A DNA stretch of 64,000 bases, taken from an uncultured Gemmatimonadales bacterium. Lineage in GTDB: Bacteria > Gemmatimonadota > Gemmatimonadetes > Gemmatimonadales > GWC2-71-9. The position numbers were made by a program, and so were the translations under genes. Shown here one piece after another: positions 30,382-46,502 of the stretch (position 1 is the first letter of the stretch; each line of letters begins with the position of its first letter). The DNA lies in NCBI GenBank assembly GCA_963695555.1, contig CAVOGR010000003.1, positions 21,730-85,729 on the forward strand, read 5' to 3'. A model generated the notes under the pieces. It saw only the letters and a program-made list of their open reading frames with translations. It ran no database searches and was not told the DNA's origin.

Positions 30382-30435
30382 CCCTACTCCCTACTCCCTA
30401 CTCCCTACTCCCTACTCCCCACTCCCTACTCCCTA
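30382..30435 (+). repeat. (CCCTACT)7+ heptamer tandem repeat
   Basis: Seven units plus a partial unit, abutting the stop codon at 30436. Confidence 0.9.
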
Positions 30436-31118
30436 TCACAGCTCCCTCACGTAGATGTTTCGGAAATACACCGGACTCCTGTCGTCGTGGTTCTGGAGCC
30501 CGATGTATCCCCTCGGCGCGAAGTCGGCCACCTTGCCCCGTGGCTCGGCATCCCAGTCGATCACCGTGGTACCGTTCAGCTCGACCGTAATATGCTTTCC
30601 CTGAAACGTGATGCGGTACTTGTTCCACTCGCCGGGCGGGTTCGCGGCCTTGGCACTCGGCGCCTCCGCATCGTAGACAGCCGCGGTCTGGTGGATTCCC
30701 TCACCGGCCTCGTTGATCTGGATCTCGAAGCTGTGATAGATGTAGTCGTCGCTCGACGGCACGCCCGGCACTCGGAGGAAGATGCCGGAGTTGGTTTCGC
30801 GTCGGCACACTTGAACTCGAGATCCAGCACGAAGTCGCCGTATTGCTTGACCGCATACCAGAAGAGCCCCATGCCGCCGTGCGAGGTCAGCATCCCGGTC
30901 TCCGGATCGAGGTCGAAGTAGCCCGGGCCGTAATGGTTCCAGCCGTGCTTGGAGTAGCGGCCGTCGTGCTGCTTCAGGATCTGTTCGAAGCCGTCTTGCA
31001 TGGTTGCATCCTCTTGGATGGCCGGCACCACGGGGGTCGCATCCGGCCGGCCATGGCCCGGTAGACCACGAGCGCGAAGCCACCCCTAGACACCGACAAG
31101 TACCAGCAGTCGTCGCAT
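30436..31118 (-). CDS. DUF1080 / 3-keto-disaccharide hydrolase family (frameshifted)
   Basis: YGDFVLDLEFK, NSGIFLR, FEIQI, GEWN, GYIGLQNHD, FRNI; start uncertain. Confidence 0.85.
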
Positions 31119-31162
31119 CTGATTTCACTCGACATAAGATTGGTTGGACAGGCAGCGGCCGG

Positions 31163-32424
31163 TCACTTCGGCCGGGTTCCACTCCCCCCGCGCCACGGCG
31201 GGCACGAACGACTCGAGCTCCGGCGGCGGGAAAGGCGATGGTCTTCTCCTGCTCGGCGCTCATGTAGGCCGTCATAAGCAGCTCGGCCACGTTGACGCCG
31301 TCGCCGAAGTTCTCGCTCGGGCGCTCACCCGGCGAGGAACGACCGGACCATGTGGCGGTTCTCGCCCGATGTAGCCGTACTCGGCCTCCTCGTCGCTCAC
31401 GATCGGCATGAGCCCCATTTCGGCGTTCTGCTTCTCGACCAGGTCTTCGCCGGCATCGACCCTGACCTCCCGGCTGAAGAAGACCTTGGGCCCGGCATCC
31501 AGCGTGTTGATCGACATCGAGTACTCGGGCCCCAGCAGCTCCATGCTCAGACGCAGGCCGGCGCCGACGAAGCACCACGAGGTCGTCGCCTCGACGATCC
31601 GCTCGTTCCCGTCGGCATCGCGGTACTCCACCAACGCGCGGGCGAAGTCCTCCGCGGGGCGGTTGACGTAGTCGGTCTTGCCGCCGCTCCGCTCGGCCAG
31701 GATGTCGGCGTAGTGCGGCTGCTGCCACTTCAGACACGAGGTGTAGGCCGTGACCTTGACCGGCGTCAGCGCGCTCCTCGGCGCGCCGGGCGGCGTCGAG
31801 CAGAAACCGCGCCACCTCCACCGAGTGGCACATCATGTCGTTCAGCACACCGCCGCCCTGGAGCTCCCCGTCCCAGAACCACGGCATGTGCGGCCCGCTG
31901 TGCTCCTCCGCCGCGCGCGCCAGGTAGGGTCGGCCCGGTCGAGCGCCGCACCGCGGCTCCAGACGATCTCCTTGCCGCGCACCACGCCCGGGCGAGAAGA
32001 GCTGGTTCTCGAGGTAGCCGTCGAGCAGGCCGACCTGCTGGACCAGCTCGAGCATCCTGCGCGCTTCCGCGGCGTTGCGTCCGAGCGGCTTCTCGCACGC
32101 CACACCCGACGCAGCTCGCCCTTGCCGGACTCGATGGCGTCGGACGATCTCCTCCATCACCTCGACCCGGGTGAAGTTGGGCGAGCAGATCCAGAGTGCG
32201 TCGATGCCGGGATCGGCCACCATCTCGGTGACCGAGCGATAGACCTGGGCGTCGCCGACGCCGAGCTTGCGCGCCAGGCGCCGCCGCCTCTCGCGCCGTC
32301 TCCATCGCGCCGACTCACGACGCCGAGCACGTCCGCGTTCCGCACGCCCACGAACGAGCGGATATGAAAGCGGCTCGACGAATCCACCGCCGACGATGCC
32401 GACACCCAAGTCGCCTTCTGTCAT
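31163..32424 (-). CDS. Gfo/Idh/MocA oxidoreductase (frameshifted)
   Basis: VGIVGGGF, DALWICSPN, ACEKPL, GGGVLNDMMCH. Confidence 0.85.
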
Positions 32425-32475
32425 GCCACGTCGTCCTTTCCTTCGTTCGACTGCTCTGTTACCGCATCCATATGG

Positions 32476-33706
32476 CTAGGCCGCCTTCGCCTGGATTCGG
32501 CGCCGACTCCTCGCGGAAGAAGAGCAGGAACGCCACCGCACACACGACCGTCAGGGCACACGGGCACCAGGAACACGTAGGTCCAGTTGGTGCCTCCGGT
32601 CGTGGTGAACAGGTCACGGATCTTGCCCGGCGAAGAGGCTGCCCAGGAACCGCCCGAGCCCGAGCGCGACGATGGCGATGAGGCTCTGCGCCGAGGCCCG
32701 GATGTCCGGCGGTGCCACCTTGTCCACGTAGATGAAGGCCGCGACGAAGAAGAAGACGTAGCAGAAGCCGTGCGAGCGCCAGCGAGGCGATCACCAGCCA
32801 GGCGGGCGCTGCCGATCGCAGAAGATCACGTAGCGGATCGGCCAGGCGATGACGCCGAAGGCCAGCGTCTTCCGCATGCCGTACTTCTTCAGGAAGCGCG
32901 ACAGCAGGAACGCCATGACGAAGATCTCGGCGAGCTGCGCCGATGGTCATCACCCACGGCGACCCAGGTGCTCGACACGCCGATCTGTCCGACTCGAGGA
33001 ACGGCGCCGTCAGGATGTAGTAGAACTCGCAGCTCGGTCGCGACCACGAAGGTGATGCCGACGAAGATGGCGAACTGCTTCGCCTTGAGCATCTTGAGCG
33101 ATTCGAGGAACGCCCACGGCTTGACCCCCTCCTTCTGCGGGCGGCGTGTGCGGCAGGGTGAACGACTGCACGCCCATGATGAGCGAGGCGACGCCGGCCA
33201 GCAGCAGCATGTCGCCCGCGCACCGACGGAGCACCGTGGCCGGTCCGCCAGCCAGCGCCAGCCGGTGAGCGTCCACCCGGCCGCGATCCACCCGAGCGTG
33301 CCCCACACGCGAATCCCGCCGAACTCCTCCTCGGAGTCCTTCAGGTTGATCATGGCGATGGAATTGGTGAGCGCCAGCGTCGGGGCATAGAGCAGGCAGT
33401 AGACCAGCATCAGCCCGAACATCAAGCCGTAGTCGGTCGTCCGCGGACGACCGCGATCAGCAGGATGCCCCCGGTGAACGCCAGAAACCCGATCACCTTC
33501 TCGGAGGCGAAGTACCGATCCGCCAGCTGCCCGCCGATGAACGGCGCGATGATCGTCGCCAGCGGCAGCAGGGCGTAGATCCAGCCGACCTGCCCGCCGC
33601 TCATGCCGAGGTCGTTGATCAGATACGACGACAGCACCGGGGCCCACGCGCCCCAGATGGCGTACTGCAGGAACATCATCATGCCGAGCCGGGTCTTGGA
33701 GCTCAC
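32476..33706 (-). CDS. MFS nucleoside/sugar:H+ symporter (NupG-like; frameshifted)
   Basis: MMFLQYAIWGAW, GQLADRYF, PTLALTNSI, IRVWGTLGWI. Confidence 0.85.
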
Positions 33707-35313
33707 ACGATCCTCCGCGCGATCGGATCCCACTCGACCTTCCGGCCTTCGAGATACGACCGGGTGGCCATGTGACAGGTAATGGCTTCCTCGAAGCCCC
33801 GGTCGATGTTGCAGCTCGTCTCACCGCCGTTGCGGATGACGTCCAGCCACTCGGCGATATTGCAGGTGATAGGCCGACACCCGCCGCCCGCCGCGGTAGG
33901 TGTAGAGCAGACCGCGGGTCACGAAGTACTCCTCGGTCGCCGAGGTCACGGCGTCGATGCCCTTGAACCCGGGTCGATACGTGAACATCGGCCGGGAGGT
34001 GTTGATGACGCCGTCCTTGATCTTCTTCTCGTAGCGGGTCGACTCGCCGTCGGCCGTCACGGTCAGGTCGCCGCTCACCCGCATGGACGCGTCGTGTCCC
34101 ATGAACATGAGCCCGCGGTAGTTGCCGTTGGCCAGCGTCGCGCTGTAGACGAAGGTGAGGTCGCGGTCCGGATACTCGTAGACCGCCTGGAACACGTCCG
34201 GCACGTCGCGTCCGTCCTTGAAGTAGTAGATCCCCCCGGAGGCGACCGCCGACTTTGGTATGCCCACCTGGAGGATCTGATTCACCCCGTCGTATTCGTG
34301 TGACAGCAGATCACCCGCGAGTCCGGTGCCGTAGTCGTACCAGCACCGCCACCGGAAGAACCGCTCGAGGCTGAACGGCACCTTATTGGGGGCGGGGCCC
34401 TGGAACAGCTCCCAGTCGATCGTCTGGGGGTTCCCCTCCTCGTGGATGTCCCACACCCAGGCGCCCCACGGCGAGTTCCGGTTGGTGGTGCCCTCGACCA
34501 GCGTGATCGGGACCCAGAATGTTGGCCTCGATGACCTCTCGGGCCTTGTTGTGCGCCTCGGACTGGCGATTCTGGTGGCCGAGCTGGAAGACGATGTTGG
34601 AACTCTTGACCGCGTCGTACATGCGCGTGCGCTTCTTCTTCCGTTCGCGTCATGCACTTCTCGCAGTACACGTGCACGCCTTCGGCCGCGGCGGCGATCG
34701 TCATCCGCGAGTGCCAGTGATCGGGCGTCGCGATGATCACCGCGTCCACGTCGCCACTCTGCAGCAGGTCGCCGTAGTGGCGGTATCGCTTGGCGGGCTG
34801 CCGGGCGCTACCGGCTCCCGGCCGCGCCTCCACCGTCGAGGCGGCGATTCCACGCTCGGCTCGCACGTCGAACACGTCGCACACGGCCGTGATCGCGACG
34901 TTCAGGTCGTCCTGGCCGAGATAGGTCACCAGGGCCTTGTTGCGCGGGTTCTTCCGCGCCTCCTCACGCTGCTCTTCCACCCAGTCGGGATGGGCGAATC
35001 CGGCGTGCCGGACCAGGGACTCCCCCTCCCCGCCGAACCCGATGATGCCGACCCGTACCCGCTGACTGGGTGGTCGCGACATCGCGTCCTTGATGAACGC
35101 CGGCCCTCCCTCGGTCACGCCCAGCTCCTCGAGGATCGCACGCTTCTTGGCGTCCTCGATCGATTTCTTCTCGAGATAGCTGTAGGCGAAGGCCCCAACG
35201 AAGGGGACTGAGACCAGCGCCTTGAGCAGTCCGCGGCGGCTCAGCCCCGCCGGCGGCGAGGGCGGAGGCGGGGTCTGGGGCTCGCTCTGATCGGTCGTGC
35301 GTTCGTCGGTCAT
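33703..35313 (-). CDS. Gfo/Idh/MocA oxidoreductase with Tat-like leader (frameshifted)
   Basis: LSRRGLLK, VGIIGFGG, IATPDHWH, YCEKC, WRCWYDYGTGLAGDLLSH. Confidence 0.85.
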
Positions 35314-35325
35314 CGTCGCGTCTCC

Positions 35326-35865
35326 TCAGGCCCGGGCCTGCTGCTGGGTCAAGTCTTCACTGCCGCGATTCCACGGCACGAGCCGGTCCAGTCCCCACAG
35401 CTTACCGGTCGGGAACGCGAGGAGTACGGCCAGCGCCACCATTTCGATCAGGACCTTGTTTACGACCAGGTAGCTGCCTTCGGTCGGCATGCCATAGCTG
35501 TAGCCGACGAACGGCGGGGCGGCGACGTAGTACAGGAACAGGAGCACGATCCCGGCGACGGTGGCGGTCCGGGTGAAGAGTCCGAACATGAGGCCGAGCC
35601 CGATCAAGAGCAGTCCCCAGGCATTCAGGTAATCGACCACCGTGAGGAGCGTCGGGTTGGCGGCGATGTCCAGGAAGACACTACTGAACCACCACTTGGA
35701 TTCCGCCAGGTACCCGGCTGACGTCCAATACGGGTTCGTCAGCTTGGCCAGACCCTCGTAGGTGAAGTGCCAGCCGATGAGGATTCTGAGGACTACCAGC
35801 GTCGTGGTCTGGAATCGCGAGTATCCTCGCATCCCCCAGGTTCCAACTGTCTCGCCTCGCATCAT
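35326..35865 (-). CDS. DoxX/DoxD-like membrane protein
   Basis: LRILIGWHFTYEG..K, GLLLIGLGLMFGLFTR, GLDR. Confidence 0.82.
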   Translation of the reverse strand: MMRGETVGTWGMRGYSRFQTTTLVVLRILIGWHFTYEGLAKLTNPYWTSAGYLAESKWWFSSVFLDIAANPTLLTVVDYLNAWGLLLIGLGLMFGLFTRTATVAGIVLLFLYYVAAPPFVGYSYGMPTEGSYLVVNKVLIEMVALAVLLAFPTGKLWGLDRLVPWNRGSEDLTQQQARA

Positions 35866-36916
35866 GCCTCCGCCGCTTCCACGTTATCGGCCGGCGCACT
35901 CCTCCAGCCACGGGACCGGACCTGCTGCCCGTCCCGATCGATGATCAGACATTCACAATCCGGCAACTCGTCCACGAACCGAACGCCCTGTGCTGGCCCC
36001 ATCACGAAGACGGTCGTGGCCAGTGCGTCCGCCGCCATGGTCGACGGCGCCACGACCGACACGCTCGCGCACTCGTTGGGTGAGCGTCCAGTAGTCGCGC
36101 TCACGATATGATGCACCAGGCGATCGCGGTCGAAGTAGATCTCGTAGCTGCCCGAGGTGGCCACGGCGCCGTCGGTCAGGTGAATCGTGTCGGGGTAACT
36201 CCCGTCCTTGGTGGGATTCTGGACCGCTACCGTCCACGGACGTCGCTCTTCTTTGGTTCCGGACGTCCGGATGTCGCCACCGGCGTTGATCAGGTAGTTG
36301 TCGAGCTTGTGCCGCCCGAGCACACCGGCGATGGCATCGACGATGTAGCCCTTGGCGATGCCGTCCAACGTGATGGCCATGCCGGGCCGCTCGAAGTCGA
36401 CCCGTGTGCCGGTCACGTCGAATGTGCGCCGCACCGACCAGGTCGAGTGCCTCCCGGAGCTCCGCCGCCGACGGCTCCGCGGGCACCAAGGCGGTCATCC
36501 GCTCTCTGAAGAGGTCGACGACCGGCGCCACCGAAATGTCGAACGCGCCCCGACTCAGCTGGTGGATCGCGTGTGACCGGGAGAGCACGTGGAGAAACTC
36601 GGGTGGTGCTCCGTCGATCCGCCCGACGTCGTTGAGATACATGATGGCGGAGGCCGAGTCGTATCGGCTGAAGATGGCGATCAGCCGATCCATCTCGTCG
36701 AACGCCCGGCCGATCGCCTCTTCGGCGCGGTGCTGAGAGGGCGCGAGCACCGATACCGCCACGACGGTTCCCATGGCGGCACGGCTCTGGGTGACCTTGT
36801 AGGTCCGACGACTCAGGCGGACGGCTGCGGTGGTGACCGGTGACGGCGTCCACGCGCTCGAAGCCCAGCCGCTGGAGGGCGGCGAGCTTGCCTCGGATAT
36901 GCGCTGTCTCGTGCAT
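35862..36916 (-). CDS. apbE: FAD:protein FMN transferase (frameshifted)
   Basis: [43 protein letters not shown]. Confidence 0.88.
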
Positions 36917-36979
36917 GAATGCTCGAGGTTGCGACTGGGTGATGGGATGTTGCGAATATACGACTAAACGGCGTGTCGG

Positions 36980-37921
36980 CTAGCGGTATTGTCCTTCCAG
37001 TGAGCTCCGGACGCGCTCGAGCAGTGCCTTGGTCGCCCGGATGCCGTCCGGCTCGCTCAACGCCTGTCCTTCGTACTCGATGCCGATGTGGCCACGGTAC
37101 CCGGCGTCGAGGACGACCCGGAGCATCCGCGTGGAAGTCCGTCTCGACCACGTTGCCGGACGGGTCGAAGTCATAGGACTTGGCGCTCACCGCCTTGGCA
37201 AACGGCATGAGCTCCGCCACGCCCTGGTAGCGGTCGTACCACTCGTCCTCGGCCAGCTTGAAGTTGCCGAAGTCCGGCAGCGTGCCGCAGCGGGGGTGAT
37301 CCACCGCTGGATGACGCTCGCGAGCCAGGCCCCGTTCGACGAGAGGCCGCCGTGGTTCTCCACGAGGACGTTGATCTCACGCTGCGGCGGCGAATTCGGT
37401 GAGCCGGCGGAGCCCATCGGCGGCCAGCCGGCGCTGTTCGTCAGGTGAGCCTGCCGACTGGGCGTTGACCCGGATCGAGTGGCATCCCAGGAACTGTGCC
37501 GCGTCCACCCAGCGATAGTGGTTCTCGACCGCCGTGCGCTACGGGCCGCGTCGTCTGGATCGCCAATGGCACCCTCGCCGTCGCACATGATGAGGAGGTT
37601 GGCGACGCCGTGGTCCTGAGCCCGGTCCTTGAGCTCCTGCAGATAGGCCCGGTCCTGTGCCTTGTCCTTGAAGAAGGAATTGACGTACTCGACGGCCTCG
37701 ATCCCGTAGTCGCGGTGCGCGGTTGCCGGGAAGTCGAGGTTGTCGAGCTCCCCGGCGTACAGTGCCCGATGGAGCGACCACTGGGCGAGCGATATCCGGA
37801 AGAGCGGTTCGTCGCGGGTCCGGGTGCATGAAAGCAGCGTCAGCGGCTCGAGCAAGCCCAGCGCGGGCAGAATGCCCCCGGAGATTTCAACGAATCGACG
37901 ACGGGACAACGGCTGCGACAC
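36980..37921 (-). CDS. Sugar phosphate isomerase/epimerase (xylose isomerase-like TIM barrel), Tat leader (frameshifted)
   Basis: [45 protein letters not shown]. Confidence 0.85.
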
Positions 37922-37932
37922 CGAGGCCTCCT

Positions 37933-37990
37933 CACTCCTTTACTCTCTACTCCCTACGCCCTACTCCCTACTCCCTACTCCCTACTCCCC
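37933..37990 (+). repeat. (TACTCCC)n heptamer tandem repeat
   Basis: About eight degenerate units just upstream of the 37921 start. Confidence 0.85.
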
Positions 37991-38030
37991 GTAGTAAATC
38001 ATTCCCACACCGCACGGCAAGGGTCCCCAA

Positions 38031-38150
38031 GGCACGAGGGCCCGTTCAGAGTGTCTGAACGCGCCCTCGTGCCGCCTCGAACCTTCCTGCGTCGCACTGC
38101 CCTAACGCAGGAGAGCCCGTTCAGAGTGTCTGAACGGGCCCTCGTGCCGC
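38031..38150. terminator. Duplicated hairpin (probable terminator) downstream of lipoprotein gene
   Basis: gcccgttcagagtgtctgaacg(c/g)gccctcgtgccgc occurs twice; the first copy forms a 20-bp stem with one mismatch. Confidence 0.55.
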
Positions 38151-38177
38151 TCGGAATGCGAAGCGAGCTCTCGTCGG

Positions 38178-39140
38178 TTACTTGACCACGGTGAGCCCGA
38201 ACGGCATGTCGAACCGTCCCACCTCGGTCACTTGCGGCTTCCCCTTGGTCGGCAGCTGGCAGAGGATCGCGGATGTGCCCTCGAGCGTCCAGGTGATGCC
38301 GTCGAGGGCATGAGCCAGCGTCAACCGGTTTCCTGTCACGTCATTATTCTCGCAATCAAAGCCGAACCTGAGGAACCAGTTGAAGCCCTTGCCGCTCGCA
38401 TCGGGCCGGACCCAGGTCACCTGGGCGCGGGTGGTCGTGGTGCTTCCCGGAACCATCAAGAGGGGCTCCACGCCAGGATCGGCCGTGCTGAAATAGCCGT
38501 CGTCGCACACATCGGCAGGCAGTCCTGGCTGATCGGGGAAATCGAAGCAGAACTTGCGGTCGCTGGTGGCGACGCGTGCATCCACGAACAGATTACCGAT
38601 CGCGAGGATGACGGCGTCGGTATACGCGCCGGCCGAATCGCTCATGACACCGTCGCCCGCTGCGTCGCGGAAGGTGGCGCTCACCGGTGTGTCGCTGGGT
38701 GCTCCCTTCTGCTTCACGCTGAAGAGTTCGGACCCGATCCCTTTCTTGCCTCGAAACGTCATGACCTCGACGTCGTACAGGGCCACGTCGGCCTCGAGCG
38801 GGATCTTGATGTGCGCCTTGAGCCGAGTGTCATCGACGAACGTCGTCGAATCGACGGTGACGAGGGACGTGCCTCCCGGTAAGACCCAGCTGGCCTCCGA
38901 GCCATCGTCGAACCCCGACCCTATGACGTCCACTGTCAGCATCGTGTCCTGCGGTGCCTCGCTGGGATCGGCCTGGTCCACGTTCACCTTGACACCCGGG
39001 CCGCCGCCGCCGCCCTTGGCGGCGAGTATGGCGGTGTCAGTCGGGCTGGTCGGCTGCGATTCGGTGCAGGCCAGGAGGCCAACCACCAGCCACCCAACGG
39101 CCACCATGCCGCGATATGGAAGAAGATGCCGCTTCGTCAT
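38178..39140 (-). CDS. Hypothetical lipoprotein with beta-rich/Ig-like domains
   Basis: LLAC lipobox, AKGGGGGPG linker; GGAGG RBS; intact 320-aa ORF. Confidence 0.8.
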   Translation of the reverse strand: MTKRHLLPYRGMVAVGWLVVGLLACTESQPTSPTDTAILAAKGGGGGPGVKVNVDQADPSEAPQDTMLTVDVIGSGFDDGSEASWVLPGGTSLVTVDSTTFVDDTRLKAHIKIPLEADVALYDVEVMTFRGKKGIGSELFSVKQKGAPSDTPVSATFRDAAGDGVMSDSAGAYTDAVILAIGNLFVDARVATSDRKFCFDFPDQPGLPADVCDDGYFSTADPGVEPLLMVPGSTTTTRAQVTWVRPDASGKGFNWFLRFGFDCENNDVTGNRLTLAHALDGITWTLEGTSAILCQLPTKGKPQVTEVGRFDMPFGLTVVK

Positions 39141-39183
39141 GGGGACCTCCCCGTAGTGGACCTCGAGGCGAGGTGAACAGGAG

Positions 39184-42176
39184 TCACAGAGTCTGTCGCT
39201 TTCTTAATGGCACGGATGTTCCCGCCCGAGTGTGCGCCTGCCGGTGGCCGTTGTAGCCGGCCAGCTGGTAGGTGGCCCAGTAATACGCGGCAGCCGTACC
39301 GCTCGTGGGCCAGCATGGCGCGCTGGGCCCGGGCCAGCGCGTGGGCGGGAGAACGTCCCGTCAAATTCCGATAGAACTGCTCGGCGAATGCCGCCGCCCC
39401 GGCGTCTTCCACCGGCCAGAGCGTCGCGATGACACTGCCCGCACCCGCGTGGAGGAACGCCTGGGCCAGAGTCGTGTAATCCTCGCCCTGCACGAAGGCG
39501 GTCGAATGGGCCGCTCCGACTCCGGTCTCACAGCCGGAGAGAAAGACCAGCTGCGCGTGGATGGGGAGGTTCAAGCAGTTCGTGCACCTCGAGTCGCCCG
39601 TCGTCCGCCGGATCGCCACCATTGTTGCGCGCCAACTCGAGCCGGGAGAACATCGGGTTCTGCGCATTCAGGATGCCGTGGGTGGCCACATGCACCAGGC
39701 CCGAACCTGCAAGCGCGGTCCGTACGGTCCGCTCGGTCGCTCGGGAACCCAGATATCGGCTGATCCTCGCGTCCTCCGCACGCACGGCCCCGACCTCGCG
39801 CCGAGTGCCGGGCAGCCGATCGGGGAACGGCGCGAAGGCCGAGACCGCGAGCGTGCCCTCCGCCTTATCGGTCTTGCGATCGGCCAGCACGGGAAGCGCG
39901 GCCGCGGAAGGGAGAACCCGCAGCGAGAAGTCCTGCACCAGGTAGCGGCCGGTGGTTCGATCCTTGAGTGCCGCAAAGGGCAGGTAGACCAGCACCTGAT
40001 GCGGCACGATCATGAGTTCATGCGCGTCGCTCAACAATCCGGCACCCAGCAGCGGCTCGATCAACGCCTCGTGCAGCGCTTCGAGCACGCGGTCGAGACG
40101 CTCCCCGCGCGCCATCGTTTCTCGCCATCAACTCGCGCGCGAGCCGCACCCGGCTGGCGACGTTCTTCACGCTGACCGGGCTCTCCAGGGCATGGACCCG
40201 ATCGCGCGTCACGAGAAAGACGACCACCTGACCTTCCAGCGGGACGAAGTACTCGATCAAGAGCTGCCCCGGACCGAGCGCCGCGCGGACAGCCGCGACA
40301 TCGGGACGAGCGGCGCCTAGGAAGGCGGCCGCATCGCGGTCCGTTTCCGCCGCCTGCACCAGGAAGCCCTCGTACTCGCGTCGGGCCCGTTTCAACCGAT
40401 CATAGAGGAACGCCAGTTCCCGCGACTCATCCGGGCTGAGGTCACTCGTAGGGGTCTCTTCGATGTAGTCGATGCTCTCCACCAGGCGGTCGATCTCGCT
40501 CAGCAACATCTCGCCGTCAGAGAAGGCCTCCGCGGGGGCGGAGTGAGCAGATGAGGCCTGTCCCGCAGCCGCCAGTCGCTCGAGCAGCACCCGTCCCCGG
40601 GCGGCGTCCGCCACGCCGAAGGCCTCGTCGATCCGACCCAGCCGAAGCAGCACCGAGATGAGGTGGGCATAGACCTCGCGCTTGTCCGCGACGAAAGCGG
40701 TCCGCAACAAGCCCGAGCTGAAGTTGCCCCGGACCCCTTCGACCGTCGCCAGGGCGCGGCGTCCGGCCACGGCGGCCTCCTGAGTCCGTCCGAGTCGCTC
40801 AAGCGCGCGCGACTCGAGCAGCCGTGCTTCCCACTCGGCGGCGTAGCCGCCGCGCGCCAAATCGGGCTCGATGCGCTCGATGACCGTGAGGACTTCACGA
40901 GGGCGCCGCTGCCGGTCCGCGATTCTGGCCTCGGTGAGACCCAGTTCGACCCGAGCGACACGCGCACCGACATCGCTCGCCACGGCTCGCGCCTCCTGCC
41001 AACCGTCGCTGGACTGCCCCGTCGCCGTCCTCGAGCCGGTCGAGGATCTCGGCCAGGATCGTGAGGTCGCCGAGCACCTCCATCGGTGCCCCAATGGCGC
41101 GATGAATCTCCAGCGCCTCGAGTGCTGATGCGCGGGCCCGATCCAAGTCTCCCAACCGGACGTGGATGTCGGCCTCGCTCCGGAGGTCTACCCCGGTCTC
41201 GAGGTCGAGTCCCAATTCGGCGTTGATGGTCTGGGCCGAGTCGTACATCTCGAGCGCACGACGGAAGTCACCTGCCGCGCGATACAGGTCGGCCATCGCT
41301 TCGAGAATGCTGGCCTGTTCCTGCTCCAGCCCCTGTCGTGTTGCCAGGGTGAAAGCGCTGTCCAGCACGACAAACGCCTGCCCCGGGTCACCCAGGGCCA
41401 TGTACGCCATCCCGAGTTGCCCCAGGGCGCTCTGGACGCCGGTGGCGTAGTCGGCGACTTGATACCGGGCGAGCGCCTGCTGAAGGAGCGGGATCGCGGC
41501 GTTGGGGTCGCCCAGTCGAATCTCGAGCATGCCGAGGTTGGTGAGTGCGTTCCCTTCGAGCCGCGCATCGCCCAGCTCGGCCATGGTAACCTGCATCGCC
41601 TCAAAGCCCGTGCGGGCCTCCCGGAATTGTCCCAGCTCGGTCTGTACCAGCGCGAGGTTGCCGAGCGCAGTGGCTGCCGCGCGACGGTTCCCCGTCTCGC
41701 TGCGCAGCGGTGCCCGCCTTCCCGAACAACAGGACCGCGTCCGAGAGCCGGTTTTCGGTCCAGGCCAGGAGTCCGAGTGCATTGTATGAGCGGAAATACT
41801 GATCGGTGAGGGCGTGTTGCTGCTTGAGGGCAAGCGCCGCCTCACCGATGCGTCTGGCCTGCTGGTGATTGCCCAGCTTGTAGTGTGCCAGTCCGATCCA
41901 GGTGAGGGCCCTCGCCTCGGCGGCTACTGCGCCCTCTTGCTTTGCCCGTTCACGCACCTGCTCCAGGATGGCCGCGGCACTGTCGAACTTGCCGGCAAAG
42001 TAGATGGCCTCGACCGCGGCAAAGACCGAATCGTATCCGCTCTGGGTCGCGACGGAGTCCGTAGCACGTCCGCCGGTGTGCAGCCCTCCCACCACCGAGG
42101 CATCCCTGGTCTGATCGGAACAGGCCAGGATGCACGAGCAAGCCAAGAGCCATGCCAAGCGGGGGTGCACGGTCAT
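39184..42176 (-). CDS. TPR-CHAT (caspase-like) protease with lipoprotein-type signal (frameshifted)
   Basis: ILAC lipobox, many TPRs (ALGNLA, ALTNLG), ARGRVLLE, IVPH..LPFAAL, catalytic HVATHG and LSGCETG, ATLWPV, YYWATY. Confidence 0.88.
39207..39237 (-). promoter_or_regulatory. Putative ECF promoter, copy A
   Basis: GCGCAC-N14-ATCCGTGCCAT upstream of the 39140 lipoprotein. Confidence 0.65.
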
Positions 42177-42747
42177 GGTCGGATGGTGAATTCCCGGACT
42201 CCCGTGGTTGACGATCGGGCATCGTCGAGGAGCGCATCGACGTACCAGTAGTACCGACTGCCGGACTTGAGGTCGACGCCACGCGGCAGCACGAGGCTCG
42301 TGTCGGACGTCTCCGCGGTCCACACCACGTCGCCATTCTCGTCCGTCACGGTCAGGACGTAGTGCGCGTTCCGTGGCCCTCGCTCCGCCACAGGAAGATC
42401 AGGCTGTCCACAGATACCGGCGTCTTCTCGGCCGGCATCACGGCGCTGAATTGTCGGACACCTTCCGTGCCTGGTCCGCGGGTGGCCATTCCGTCGGGGC
42501 GCGTTCCTTGCCCCGGGAGGAGAACGAACAGGGCCACCGCCGCGGCGGCCGCCGGAATGGCGATGGCGATCCAGCGGCGTGGCCTCGGATCCGCGGTGAG
42601 TGCCGCCGCTTCGGCCACATCCCGTCGGCATTCGGCACACCCGACGAGATGGCGCTGCGCCGCTCGATGTTCTTCCGCCGAGGCCTCGTGGGCCAGGTAG
42701 GCGGCAATGAGTTCAGGGCTCAGATGCTGAGGGTCCGTCAAGGCCAT
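42173..42747 (-). CDS. zf-HC2 anti-sigma factor with one TM and extracytoplasmic beta domain (one frameshift)
   Basis: H-x(n)-HLVGCAEC zinc motif, TM WIAIAIPAAAAAVALFVLL, C-terminal YYWYVDAL. Confidence 0.85.
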
Positions 42748-42782
42748 ATCCTCTTTCCGATAATGGTGTTCCGTCTCTTCCT

Positions 42783-42814
42783 ATGAAACGGATATGGCAG
42801 CCCTGGAGGTGCGC
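42783..42814 (-). promoter_or_regulatory. Putative ECF promoter, copy B
   Basis: GCGCAC-N15-ATCCGTTTCAT between sigma and anti-sigma. Confidence 0.65.
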
Positions 42815-42818
42815 CGGT

Positions 42819-43507
42819 TCATGGCTCCGTGATGCCATGGGCCTCGAGCCCGTCCTTGAGCTGGGCCAGGACGGCCGTCAGCCGGCGGTGCACCTGAAAG
42901 CGTGAGCGCAAGCCTATCATCGGGCCGATCTTGCCCAGCGGTACGTCATCCTCGAACCGGAGCGTCAGGAGCAGTTGATCGGCGACATCGAGTGTTGCGA
43001 CGACACTGTCTCAGCGCCGTCCGGCGTTCCTCTCTCAGGACCTCCGCGTCGGGATGGGGACGTTTCCCGTCCCCCATTTGCTCCAAGTCGATCTCTGCGG
43101 CGACGAAGTCCACCAAGTTGCGTCTCGCGACATGTTCCAGGGCCTGGGCGGGGCTCGACTCCTGCGTCCGCTTGAAGCCGACCATGGGTGTGACGGTGGT
43201 GATCCACGCACAGCCGACGCGCGACCACGACCAACCAGGTGGTGAACTTTCCCCGACCGTCTGCCGCGAAGGCACGGAGCCGGCGACATCCATCGTCACG
43301 GAGCTGGTCCAGGATAAAGGCGTAGCGATCCATGGCGCCGTCATGACTCGGCGCGGTCCTTCGGGCGACCTTGAGCAGGAGCGTGCTGTACTCGTGGAGG
43401 AACGCCGCCCACGCGTGACCGCGGGTCACATCGTCGGATGCGGCGAGCACGCCAGCCAGCTGGGGTGGGACGAATGTGGACACCTGCGACCGCCCGGGGG
43501 TCATCAC
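42819..43507 (-). CDS. ECF-type sigma-70 factor (frameshifted)
   Basis: AWAAFLHEYS..LLKVARR, GKFTTWLVVVARRLCVDHHR (sigma2); region 4 LLLTLRFEDD..GKIG..IGL..FQVHRRL. Confidence 0.85.
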
Positions 43508-43679
43508 TGCATTCCGGGTCTACACTCCGTGAGGAGATCGTAAACATGTCATGAAGAATCTTCAGTGACAGGCGAGGTGCGCGGCGCCGGGCTGGGTGTC
43601 GGAGTGACGAGGCGGACGGGCGGCCCCGCAAGGGACCGCCCGCTACCGGTTCCAACGGTACTGGTGCTCCGCTGCTCAG

Positions 43680-44276
43680 CTAGTGCAACGAGATCTGGGT
43701 GTTGTCCTTGACACCGGTATTCCCGTTGTACGTCCGATTCCAATGCGCACTGAAGGCGGCGTCGGCGCCATTGGCCAGCACCAGTGTCCCATGGGCGCGA
43801 TACCCGAAGGCGTTGGCATTCGACCGACCGGCGCGGAAGCCGAAGTTGTCGGTGTACACGAGATCAGACACTCCGGTCGCCAGCGGCTCATAGATCTCGA
43901 GGAGATCGCAGCCACTGAAGCCAGGGAACGGCCACACCGTCGTCCTGAGGTCCTTTCCCTGAGCGAGCTCGAGAGTCCCTCGGTCGCCGGGAAGGGCGAC
44001 CTCATGCATCGGCACGATATCGACGTCGAAGGTACCATTGCAGAAATCACGGGGGTCGATACCGATGAACACGAACGTCCCGTCTTCCTCGTCGGTCCAA
44101 CCGACGGCCACCGACGTTTCGCCACGCATCACGATCCCCGATTGTGCCGGCGCGTGGTCGATGGCGAACGCGGGAGCCACTGCGGCGGCGTCCGAATCCG
44201 TGGACGAAGTAGGCTGCTCGTTGCAGCCGACGATTAACACGGCCCCCAGAGCGAGTGAACAGGCAGTGGTACGCAT
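43680..44276 (-). CDS. Hypothetical lipoprotein
   Basis: IVGC lipobox; AGGAGG RBS; 198 aa. Confidence 0.78.
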   Translation of the reverse strand: MRTTACSLALGAVLIVGCNEQPTSSTDSDAAAVAPAFAIDHAPAQSGIVMRGETSVAVGWTDEEDGTFVFIGIDPRDFCNGTFDVDIVPMHEVALPGDRGTLELAQGKDLRTTVWPFPGFSGCDLLEIYEPLATGVSDLVYTDNFGFRAGRSNANAFGYRAHGTLVLANGADAAFSAHWNRTYNGNTGVKDNTQISLH

Positions 44277-44358
44277 GAGCACCTCCTGAGCAGATGGGTC
44301 AGGAAACAATCCGAGACGGCTAGATCGCGGCGTGATAACCGCCGTTCCGTCTGTTTCC

Positions 44359-44389
44359 ATGACACGGATGTGCTCGGTGGATGGTGCGC
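44359..44389 (-). promoter_or_regulatory. Putative ECF promoter, copy C
   Basis: GCGCAC-N14-ATCCGTGTCAT upstream of the 44276 lipoprotein. Confidence 0.65.
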
Positions 44390-44487
44390 ACGGCCCACCC
44401 GATGCCCGGCCGTTGTCAGCTATCAGCTATTGGCTCTCGGCAATCAGCAACGGTGGGAAGCAGAAGGGCCTGCTCCAACTCCCTGAA

Positions 44488-44542
44488 CTCGCGCGGCTGA
44501 AGCCGCTGCTCGGCACTGCGTCGCTCCGCGACGCGTACAGGC
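44488..44542 (+). repeat. Solo REP-like double-hairpin repeat, copy 4
   Basis: ctcgcgcggctgaagccgctgctcggcactgcgtcgctccgcgacgcgtacaggc, same family as the tnpA-flanking copies. Confidence 0.85.
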
Positions 44543-44612
44543 AGACATCCCGCGCTTGAGGGACTGCCTCTAGTCTCTCCGGGACCGGCCAGGGTGGCCG
44601 TACGATGTGCGG

Positions 44613-46502
44613 TCACAATCGATGGCCCTCTTCCTCCTCAGAGCCCGGGAATTGGATCACGCAATGCAGCCGCCGCAAGAACGGCTCGTCCACGCTCCGG
44701 TGCAGATTGGTGGCCAGAATCACCACCCCTTCGTACTCCTCTATCTTCTGCAGGAGATTGTCGATCTCGGGGTTGGCGTATCGGTCATGTGCGTCTCTCA
44801 CCTCGGTACGCTTGCCGAACAGGGCATCTCCCTCGTCGAAGAAGAGAACCGCCTTGGCCGCACCCGCCTTCTCGAATACCAGGGCCAGGTTCTTCTCCGT
44901 CTCGCCGATGTACTTGGACACCACCCGTGAGAAGTCGACCCGGTAAAGATCCAAGCCGAGTTCATTCGCGATGATCGCCGCCGCCATCGTCTTTCCCGTT
45001 CCAGAACCACCTGAGAAGAGTGCGGAGAGTCCCGGGCCCTGGCCGGCCTTCCGAGCAAGGGTCTGGAGTTGCTGAACCACATCTGCCGGAAGGCCTGTTT
45101 CCTCCCATGTGTGGTGGAACGCGATCTTCTCCATCAGCGTTTCAATCTTCCGATCGGATTGTGGCGTCGTGTCCGACCTGCCGAAGACACCAATCCCAGC
45201 CAAGGCCGCGCCCACAAACGGCAAGGCGAGCACCCACACGCGGAGGCCGAACCACCCGCCACCCGCTATCCCGTCCAGCGCCAGGAGCGCCAGGCCGGCG
45301 CACACCAGTGCGGCGCCGAGCACCGGTCGCCAGGCCGTGATGGGCCGCCCTGTTCCACCGCGCTCGAACCGGCCGAACACGAGCGCGAACGGAATGAGCG
45401 CCAGGGCATAGACTAGCAACCATACCGGCCGCGCCGCCCACCAGACCGCCGCTCCCGGGCGAGAGCGTCAGTCCCACGTCGCCCGCGAGGAGGGCCAGGC
45501 CGATCACGAGCGACGAGGCGGTCAAGTGCCACAGGAACACCGTCATGATCATGCCGTTCACCAGCACGGTCCAGGTCCATGGCGTCCCGCGGCGGAGCCA
45601 GCGCCGGAACGGCGATTCGATCGAGAGCAGCAGTCCGGTCTGCACGATCGCCGATTGCGAGCATCGGGAGCTTGGGCGGCAGCGTGTTGCTCACCGCCTC
45701 GCCGGGCACGCTCACCATGCTCACCGGATAGGGCCCGAACGCGACCATGCCGGCCAACAGCACCGCACCGGCGAGCGCCCATGCGAGCGCCTTCCGCGGC
45801 CCCTCGAAGTAGCCGTCCCGCCAGGCGTAGCCTAGCTGGTGCACCGCGACCCAGATGAACGCGTAGTTGAGCCAGCCGATCGAGCGGACGCCGGCGGCGA
45901 AGAACAGCGCGTCGTCGGCCACGGCGAGCAGTGCGAGCACCGCAAACGAGGCGAGCCCGAAGCGCTGCCATGCGGCGTAGGTCGCGGGCACGAGCACGAC
46001 CACCATCACATACACCGCCAGGAACCAGATCGGCACCAGCGCCACCTGGGACCCGACGCGGATCATCTCGGACTCCACACCGAGTCTACCGGCGATGGCG
46101 CCGGCGATGGCCCAGAGCAGCAGGAGCGGAAGAACCGGCCCGACCAGACGCTGGAGCCTGGAGCGGAGCCACTCGCCGTAGGTCTTACCCGAGCGCGTCG
46201 CGGACTTCCACGACACGCCGTTGGAGTAGCCGCCGACCAGGAAGAAGATCGGCATCACCTGGAACACCCAGGTGAGCCACCGGGTCCAGGGCTCGAATTC
46301 GAGCAGGCTCGCTGACCGTGGGCCGGCCATCGACCAGGTACAGCACCCCGACCATCCAGTGGCCGGTGATCACGGCGCCGATCGACACCGCGCGCAGGAA
46401 ATCGACGTAGCGATTGCGCGATTCGGGCGTGCCTGCCGCGACAGCGGCCGCACGGGACCAGAGCGTCTGCTTGGCCCGAGTGGGGGCCGCGCTCCCGCTC
46501 AC
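44613..46502 (-). CDS. Acyltransferase-3 family membrane protein (frameshifted) continuing in frame into a truncated AAA ATPase
   Basis: RNRYVDFLRA..GHW, QVMPIFFLVGG, WFLAVY; then GGSGTGKT, VVSKYIGETEKNL, LFFDEGDALFGKR, ATN. Confidence 0.75.

Follow-up and report, generated by a model that had tools for sequence, protein, structure and literature searches.

The DNA analysed here is a 64,000-nucleotide stretch, called the window throughout, from the sediment bacterium of assembly GCA_963695555.1, an uncultured member of the Gemmatimonadales (contig CAVOGR010000003.1, positions 21,730 to 85,729). It carries five co-oriented genes on the minus strand that encode a lipoprotein, a sigma factor of the extracytoplasmic function (ECF) type, an anti-sigma factor, a TPR-CHAT protein and a second lipoprotein. 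This layout had been proposed in an initial annotation made from the sequence alone, and it is borne out both by the coordinates, which lie at or near those given there, and by Pfam matches to Sigma70_r2, zf-HC2, TPR_12 and CHAT on the corresponding pieces of the window open reading frames (ORFs). Neither lipoprotein of the window has a family match in the Pfam scan, and the upstream one has none in NCBIfam either. Comparison with related loci indicates that the core of the locus is an optional four-gene cassette of ECF sigma factor, ZAS/transmembrane (TM) anti-sigma, lipidated TPR-CHAT protein and IPT-domain lipoprotein. The features are listed below in the order of transcription, followed by the span that is absent from a same-genus genome.

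44357..44390, minus strand: predicted ECF promoter P1, CGCA[A/C]-n15-TCCGT, upstream of the accessory lipoprotein gene (19.4 bits; also in same-genus genomes G003 and G004)
43680..44276, minus strand: upstream lipoprotein, family unassigned, lipobox IVGC; accessory, genus-specific putative output
about 42819..43483, minus strand: ECF sigma factor (PF04542; start inferred from the G004 alignment)
42781..42815, minus strand: predicted ECF promoter P2 ahead of the anti-sigma/CHAT pair (23.4 bits)
42173..42747, minus strand: anti-sigma with ZAS zinc-binding domain, one TM segment, Arg linker and beta-rich periplasmic domain (PF13490, alignments)
42628..42651, minus strand: anti-sigma HxxxCxxC motif
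42517..42573, minus strand: single TM segment of the anti-sigma
42475..42486, minus strand: candidate site-1 motif A-T-R-G (Arg90 codon 42478-42480)
39184..42176, minus strand: TPR-CHAT lipoprotein, putative protease, with lipobox, TPR solenoid and CHAT domain with His830/Cys879 (PF12770, TPR_12)
42120..42131, minus strand: TPR-CHAT lipobox ILAC
39675..39692, minus strand: TPR-CHAT His motif HVATHG
39521..39541, minus strand: TPR-CHAT Cys motif LSGCETG
39205..39238, minus strand: predicted ECF promoter P3 upstream of the IPT lipoprotein (23.8 bits)
38178..39140, minus strand: IPT lipoprotein, fourth core gene, with IPT/TIG domain and variable all-beta C-domain with four Cys
38709..38996, minus strand: IPT/TIG domain in a predicted model, ending in GKKGIG
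37989..45194, no strand: span without counterpart at the syntenic site of same-genus G002, which matches to 37988 and resumes at 45195

The TPR-CHAT protein matches PF12770 on two frameshift pieces at 94.8 and 87.2 bits (curated cut-off 24), and in the window its start overlaps the anti-sigma stop codon (ATGA). This overlap, the lipobox and the His/Cys dyad had all been noticed initially and are found again in relatives, with the 4-nt overlap in 39/50 loci, a lipobox pattern in 42/49 CHATs (aligned Cys in 46/49) and the catalytic residues in a 49-sequence alignment at 48/49 for His and 49/49 for Cys. These patterns agree with the earlier reading of the protein as exported and membrane-tethered and mark it as an exported, lipidated, extracytoplasmic predicted protease with an intact dyad. 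The model of the G004 copy (predicted template modelling score 0.81) has a fold that matches separase, which gives the top Foldseek matches, as well as Csx29 and DdvA. An Asn ladder in the TPR solenoid (131, 172, 212) is conserved; ladders of this sort bind extended peptides.

A genome scan with the CHAT alignment returned 229 relatives, the best 80 of which were kept and correspond to 67 loci. Further loci were added from relatives and from a 151-genome sample of the phylum (40 of 87 listed places fetched). The nearest relatives are titled Gemmatimonadota; all loci were picked by similarity to the query, and the genomes are kin. The tree of 123 distinct CHAT domains contains clade A with the window (71 members, support 0.59), its sister clade B (22 members, support 0.98) and 30 outgroup domains, with A and B joined at a support of 1.0. 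His is kept in 70/71 and Cys in 71/71 members of clade A, and the outgroups keep both (30/30). Among clade-A loci with room upstream, a same-strand anti-sigma is present in 45/45 and a sigma factor in 42/45. The linkage of sigma, anti-sigma and CHAT is far above chance, and the neighbourhood survey that the initial annotation had called for thus finds it conserved. No CHAT was matched in same-genus G002 (98% complete), and the cassette is regarded as optional because G002 lacks the whole of 37989-45194 at the syntenic site. Divergence of the cassette parts is correlated weakly to moderately (Spearman 0.29-0.53), which gives no evidence of binding.

The tree also contains natural single-chain fusions of anti-sigma and TPR-CHAT (L040, L166, L167 and L169), which form one subclade of clade B with a support of 0.99. 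These four fusions bridge the split and fused forms and represent a DdvA-like architecture within Gemmatimonadota. For the window, a single frameshifted anti-sigma/CHAT gene was considered and ruled out by the two separate genes of intact relatives. Several loci depart from the common layout. L173 and L174 have a lipoprotein gene between anti-sigma and CHAT, and most clade-B CHATs (L034-L043, L163-L174) carry non-lipoprotein signal peptides. In the deeper CHAT lineages L181, L182, L185, L188, L191, L192 and L195 the anti-sigma is convergent or the CHATs form tandem pairs; the anti-sigma Arg discussed below is kept in this set and is followed by Gly in all except L182. The cassette of L059 lies in a metagenome-assembled genome titled Myxococcota, yet the tree places this copy with Gemmatimonadota (misbinning or transfer).

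The downstream lipoprotein is predicted to contain an IPT/TIG fold, since its model (predicted local distance difference test 84) aligns over 88 residues with a plexin IPT domain (Z 10.8, root-mean-square deviation 2.0); PF01833 exceeds its cut-off in 1/37 relatives. The gene is present in 60/64 of the clade-A loci that extend 500 bp or more downstream (7 loci with less were set aside), in 0/22 clade-B loci and in 0/30 outgroups. Strong IPT-domain matches in the phylum sample lie inside CHAT cassettes in 11/11 cases (8/151 genomes). Weak matches occur at 11 places in another family, and the two checked have no CHAT nearby. The C-terminal parts of 64 IPT proteins fall into 15 clusters, mainly a repeat class (25) and the all-beta type of the window (22), with RCC1 and PQQ types besides; the single repeat-class member scanned in NCBIfam matches the HAF repeat. 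The C-domain of the window protein finds middling barrel matches alone (Z 7-8). Taken together, the gene neighbourhoods and alignments indicate that the cassette has a near-obligate fourth gene in that of the IPT lipoprotein, whose IPT/TIG domain is constant and whose C-domain is swappable. CHAT (63-970) modelled as a complex with the IPT domain scored 0.00 in two runs, for which controls were not folded, and speaks neither for nor against an interaction.

The upstream lipoprotein has homologues in 2/4 same-genus genomes and, among the 67 loci, in G003 and G004 only, and this genus-specific distribution rules it out as a core gene. The initial proposal of two lipoprotein outputs therefore stands insofar as both genes carry the promoter motif described next, and needs revision in that the upstream one is genus-specific and the downstream one a near-obligate part of the core. 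Atlas searches with the upstream lipoprotein and with the C-domain of the IPT protein gave no usable match.

A bipartite motif, CGCA[A/C]-n14/15-TCCGT, lies ahead of the anti-sigma and IPT genes, and we infer that it is read by the sigma factor of the cassette, whose intact G004 copy scores above the TIGR02937 cut-off. A matrix trained on 111 regions, with same-genus loci excluded, finds it at the threshold of at least 12 bits upstream of 38/48 anti-sigma and 57/67 IPT genes (mostly training sequences) versus 0-1% of shuffles, and upstream of 4/46 sigma genes. A short Gibbs search ahead of the sigma gene did no better than shuffles (information content 11.0 vs 10.5), and a separate promoter motif there was rejected. 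In the held-out 3.57-Mb genome the best site is P3 and the third-best P1. The spacer of P2 is 16 in the window through a +1 insertion and has the regular length of 15 in G003 and G004. Of the 153 sites at clade-A loci, 42 lead to IPT lipoproteins, 41 to anti-sigmas and 28 to other lipoproteins; a further 30 precede unclassified ORFs, many of which look on inspection like members of these classes, and 12 precede nothing readable. We claim no distant targets, and a genome-wide regulon was rejected, with site counts of 27/13/5 that equal the shuffled level (19-37/8-11/5). No sigma-70 promoter and no convincing terminator were identified. Extra lipoprotein arrays occur at L030/L100, L153-L155, L087, L082 and other loci, many with their own promoter copy; the arrayed proteins have the same C-domains (HAF-type propeller or all-beta) and no IPT domain.

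The anti-sigma linker behind the TM segment is variable except for one near-invariant residue, the Arg of the A-T-R-G motif. This motif had been put forward initially as the candidate cleavage site, a choice that the conservation of Arg90 strengthens: the residue is in column in 49/50 anti-sigmas, and the remaining one has an Arg one residue later. The same holds for 121/122 further anti-sigmas (representatives at 50% clustering). An alignment-free count places an Arg 21-27 residues past the Ala run of the TM segment in 50/50 of the first set (shuffle mean 28, maximum 38), where none of the other residues tested behaves in this way, and in 111 of the 122 (shuffle mean 67, maximum 89). The following position (P1') is Gly, Ser or Ala in 76/121 further anti-sigmas, P2 is mostly hydrophobic, and outgroup anti-sigmas have Arg-Gly in 12/13. 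The separase-type ExxR motif was not found in the anti-sigma linkers. The C-domain of the anti-sigma matches repeats within large multi-repeat proteins, and our reading of its motif is that it is FN3-like. An intact RseP gene is present in the genome.

The window copy is interrupted in three of its genes. Relative to G004 (89% identical), eight frame-breaking +1/+2 insertions are found: +1 near 43166 and +1 near 43008 in the sigma gene, +2 near 42369 in the anti-sigma gene, and five +1 insertions at 41701, 40998, 40107, 39574 and 39291 in the CHAT gene. Eight frameshifts across three genes could mark a decaying pseudogene cluster, a suspicion to which the unbroken rpoB on another contig of the same genome adds; no sequencing run of the source sample was found. 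The character of the breaks argues otherwise, since all eight are insertions, no stop codons fall within the CHAT matches, and the catalytic residues and promoters are unbroken. Unrelated neighbours share the scatter of indels, with 58 events per 7.6 kb in nearby metabolic genes versus G002 (which perhaps bears errors too) and 6 frame-breaking ones versus G004. Among the rows listed, contigs of related strains are without the extra bases at all five insertion places covered. The alignments thus indicate that the eight breaks are almost certainly assembly errors, and decay of the cassette appears highly improbable. The initial annotation had set true pseudogenisation in raw reads as a refuting outcome. 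Same-genus G003 and G004 carry intact CHAT genes (985 and 1009 residues). Contigs from RNA runs that span most of the cassette are contigs of related strains and are no evidence of transcription.

The surroundings of the cassette show further irregularities. Window 30400-37600 holds an oxidoreductase/MFS/FAD-transferase/isomerase-like cluster (named by reading the translations) that is full of single-base indels, and the density of indel errors is uneven over the assembly. Window 44613-45419, at one end of the span that G002 lacks, encodes a truncated AAA ATPase (PF00004; IetA-like in PADLOC); it continues the reading frame of an acyltransferase-like membrane gene, to whose 3' end it is fused. 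On the other side, 3' of the IPT gene, window 37949-38153 contains a run of TAGGGAG heptamers, which recurs at many places of same-genus genomes, and two near-identical hairpin repeats of about 73 bp, one copy of which is skipped by one contig of a related strain.

The closest characterized system is DdvS/DdvA of Myxococcus xanthus, in which a fused anti-sigma/TPR-CHAT protein controls CBASS/CRISPR (PMC11506125, PMC6061681; PDB 8rot). The initial annotation knew of no characterized example of the arrangement, a statement that has to be qualified in view of this fused pair, for which the same site-1 idea, self-cleavage by CHAT at the juxtamembrane linker, has already been put forward as a proposal, with DdvA truncations serving as RseP substrates (PMC11506125). 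Both systems have an ECF sigma adjoining a ZAS single-TM anti-sigma, a periplasmic TPR-CHAT with a His-Cys dyad and an RseP gene, and their promoters are built alike, with GCA[A/C]-n16/17-CGT here and GTAA-n16-CGT for DdvS (PMC6061681). Unlike in DdvA, the CHAT here is encoded on its own, as a lipoprotein, and a small beta domain closes the anti-sigma chain; fusions occur only in the four clade-B loci. The Gemmatimonadota cassette further differs in its phylum, its constant IPT-lipoprotein partner, its regulon of local lipoproteins rather than a CBASS/CRISPR island, and its promoter, which usually lies ahead of the anti-sigma and not the sigma. Since it shares neither the fusion nor the regulon, the cassette is by analogy a system that works like DdvA/DdvS without being a member. 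The search reported in the DdvA paper describes fused forms only, in Myxococcota and one Comamonas (PMC11506125). We did not find the split sigma/anti-sigma/CHAT form among the matches listed in the literature on CHAT with anti-sigma, ECF, lipoprotein or Gemmatimonad (subscription papers and supplements lay outside this scope). The main text of the 2021 ECF classification makes no mention of CHAT, and other caspase/ECF neighbourhoods are described in PMC8195603.

Craspase offers a second comparison, in which Cas7-11/Csx29 cuts Csx30 to liberate CASP-sigma (10.1101/2023.06.23.546230). As predicted here, an ECF sigma is freed when a TPR-CHAT protease of the same fold cuts the inhibitor that holds it. 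Craspase is cytoplasmic, is activated by RNA via Cas7-11 and cuts after Met/Leu (PMC11506125). The genome (87% complete) has no match to RAMP (PF03787), Rfam gives no match in window 30000-52000, and the Csx29 model NF041237 reaches 31.2 bits on the cassette CHAT versus a cut-off of 300. The lack of a RAMP gene in the genome searched and the low Csx29 score exclude Craspase on profile evidence, in line with the initial annotation, which had seen no Cas7-11 or CRISPR. With separase the cassette CHAT shares the TPR solenoid and caspase fold, an LWxVxD segment and a candidate P1 Arg. Canonical two-step proteolysis of anti-sigma factors is known from DegS/RseA/RseP and PrsW/RsiW. The predicted order of events here, a site-1 cut followed by RseP cleavage, is the same, and the predicted site-1 enzyme differs from those systems in being a caspase-clan cysteine protease that is both dedicated and co-transcribed.

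We propose that this optional cassette may be an ECF switch with an envelope-sensing role. In the resting state, the sigma factor would be kept at the inner membrane by the ZAS anti-sigma, and the co-translated, lipid-anchored TPR-CHAT would bind the periplasmic linker of the anti-sigma via Arg90. The signal would probably be a peptide or protein that binds in the TPR groove with its Asn lining, and would align the His830/Cys879 dyad, upon which CHAT would cut after Arg90 (site 1) and remove the periplasmic domain of the anti-sigma; RseP would then cut the TM segment (site 2). The freed sigma would transcribe from CGCA[A/C]-n14/15-TCCGT promoters the anti-sigma/CHAT pair, as feedback, together with a few local secreted lipoproteins, among them nearly always the IPT-domain one. 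What we infer in this scheme is the binding, the cleavage, the nature of the signal and what the IPT protein does, and the chances that CHAT binds Arg90, makes the site-1 cut and leaves RseP to finish and free sigma appear about evenly balanced. The site-1 reading draws support from the linkage (45/45 and 42/45), the fusions, the dyad, the invariant Arg, the small P1', RseP and the promoters, which, like the gene order, the lipobox and the targets of the promoter motif, are present in the sequences themselves. It also draws on the residue before Arg, which is His in 12/19 and Tyr in 4 loci whose CHAT lacks the catalytic His and is His in 0/67 His-intact loci. This covariation of P2 with the active-site His suggests a linker that occupies the active site; the substrate of clade B possibly supplies the missing His (substrate-assisted catalysis), or else the change compensates packing. 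A more specific combination, in which a stand-alone, lipid-anchored, dedicated Arg-specific CHAT acts as site-1 enzyme without CRISPR/CBASS, the IPT partner is modular and clade-B substrates supply the P2 His, seems rather improbable as a whole; within it, the swappable C-domain of the IPT protein may set input or output.

Several observations weigh against the proposed cut. All 22 CHATs of clade B are without the catalytic His, which is replaced by Tyr, Phe, Leu, Val or Asn, and they keep the Cys (22/22), the anti-sigma Arg (19/19), the Glu and Asp considered below and the promoter-driven layout. This pattern supports binding without cutting, and the Arg may thus be conserved without a canonical dyad. 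The covariation with P2 has a single evolutionary origin, and all loci are kin. In DdvA itself, the H862A and C907A variants still repress, phage Mx4 triggered no autoproteolysis, and cleavage by the CHAT domain is not demonstrated in the account of that system (PMC11506125). As for specificity, a point in favour of the cut is that Glu791 and Asp921 are invariant among CHATs; from the secondary structure of the predicted model we assign them to alpha1 and L5, and both belong to the three regions that are held to shape S1 in clan CD (PMC4357240). In the alignment with separase, however, Asp921 falls on the first Asp of LWDVTDRDID. If the 563-residue separase chain ends at residue 2223, as we assume, this first Asp is residue 2147. 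The Arg-binding residue of separase is Asp2151 (PMC10317155), whose position is apparently Ala925 here by chain-length arithmetic (Ala 44/49). An equivalence of Asp921 with Asp2151 was ruled out by this alignment, and the Glu791 of the other region is shared by Csx29, whose cuts follow non-basic residues. Because the Asp2151 position apparently falls on Ala925, Arg specificity of the CHAT is plausible only. The +2 residue of the CHAT lipoproteins is never Asp (0/46), for which reason sorting to the outer membrane, far from the linker, is possible if the E. coli +2 Asp rule applies in this phylum.

A rival reading is a non-proteolytic clamp: with the Arg linker bound in its active-site cleft, CHAT would keep RseP or another site-1 protease away from the anti-sigma until a signal releases it, the dyad being incidental or meant for another substrate. 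The His-less clade B (22/22) with its retained Arg, gene order and promoters would be explained directly, and in DdvA catalytic mutants equal the wild type at rest and a bulky domain blocks RseP (PMC11506125). The near-complete retention of the dyad in clade A and the outgroups and the mostly small P1' where His is intact speak against a clamp, and the Cys kept throughout clade B, often with a gained linker His, fits retained catalysis; we consider the clamp unlikely, though the likeliest of the alternatives. A different substrate is assumed if CHAT is mainly a maturation protease for the regulon lipoproteins, whose variable domains it would release by cutting an Ala-Lys/Arg linker that follows the lipid anchor, with the IPT domain as docking handle. 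The confinement of IPT lipoproteins to the His-intact, lipidated clade and of all 11 strong matches of the phylum sample to CHAT cassettes is in keeping with this, as is a strict A-K/R linker motif in 33/67 IPT proteins versus 10/141 rough lipoprotein candidates of genome G000. Half of the IPT proteins, however, are without the motif, as is the upstream lipoprotein of the window, and it is found in unlinked lipoproteins too, no IPT-CHAT fusion appeared among 5 longer matches (a weak search), and the invariant anti-sigma Arg and the fusions would be left unexplained, so that maturation appears improbable. Even less probable is an anti-phage sentinel like DdvA that senses a periplasmic phage protein and has lipoproteins as defence effectors. 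Its sole characterized relative controls CBASS/CRISPR, and the cassette is patchy and optional with variable output C-domains (the 15 clusters of 64). Against it, no RAMP or SMODS gene was found in the 87%-complete genome, and classable promoter targets are mostly anti-sigmas or lipoproteins. PADLOC, applied to 113 of 149 picked flanking proteins from 21 loci, found no Cas or CBASS protein among the 113 and gave matches for 9, all through generic domains (5 kinases, a desulfurase, a subtilase, and partial matches to DpdF and Mad2).

A kind of switch that has been described until now in Myxococcus only thus occurs here in a two-protein form. According to the DdvA report, validation of the site-1 role of its CHAT domain has to await discovery of the signal (PMC11506125). 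In the split system, enzyme and substrate are separate proteins, a single Arg is invariant, a defined promoter can serve as reporter and natural His-less variants exist, which makes the CHAT site-1 hypothesis testable in vitro and in a laboratory host. The system also marks out a small predicted regulon, made up of lipoproteins that are unstudied, in the poorly known phylum Gemmatimonadota. If the proposed mechanism is true, bacterial TPR-CHAT proteins would gain a role in envelope signalling outside CRISPR.

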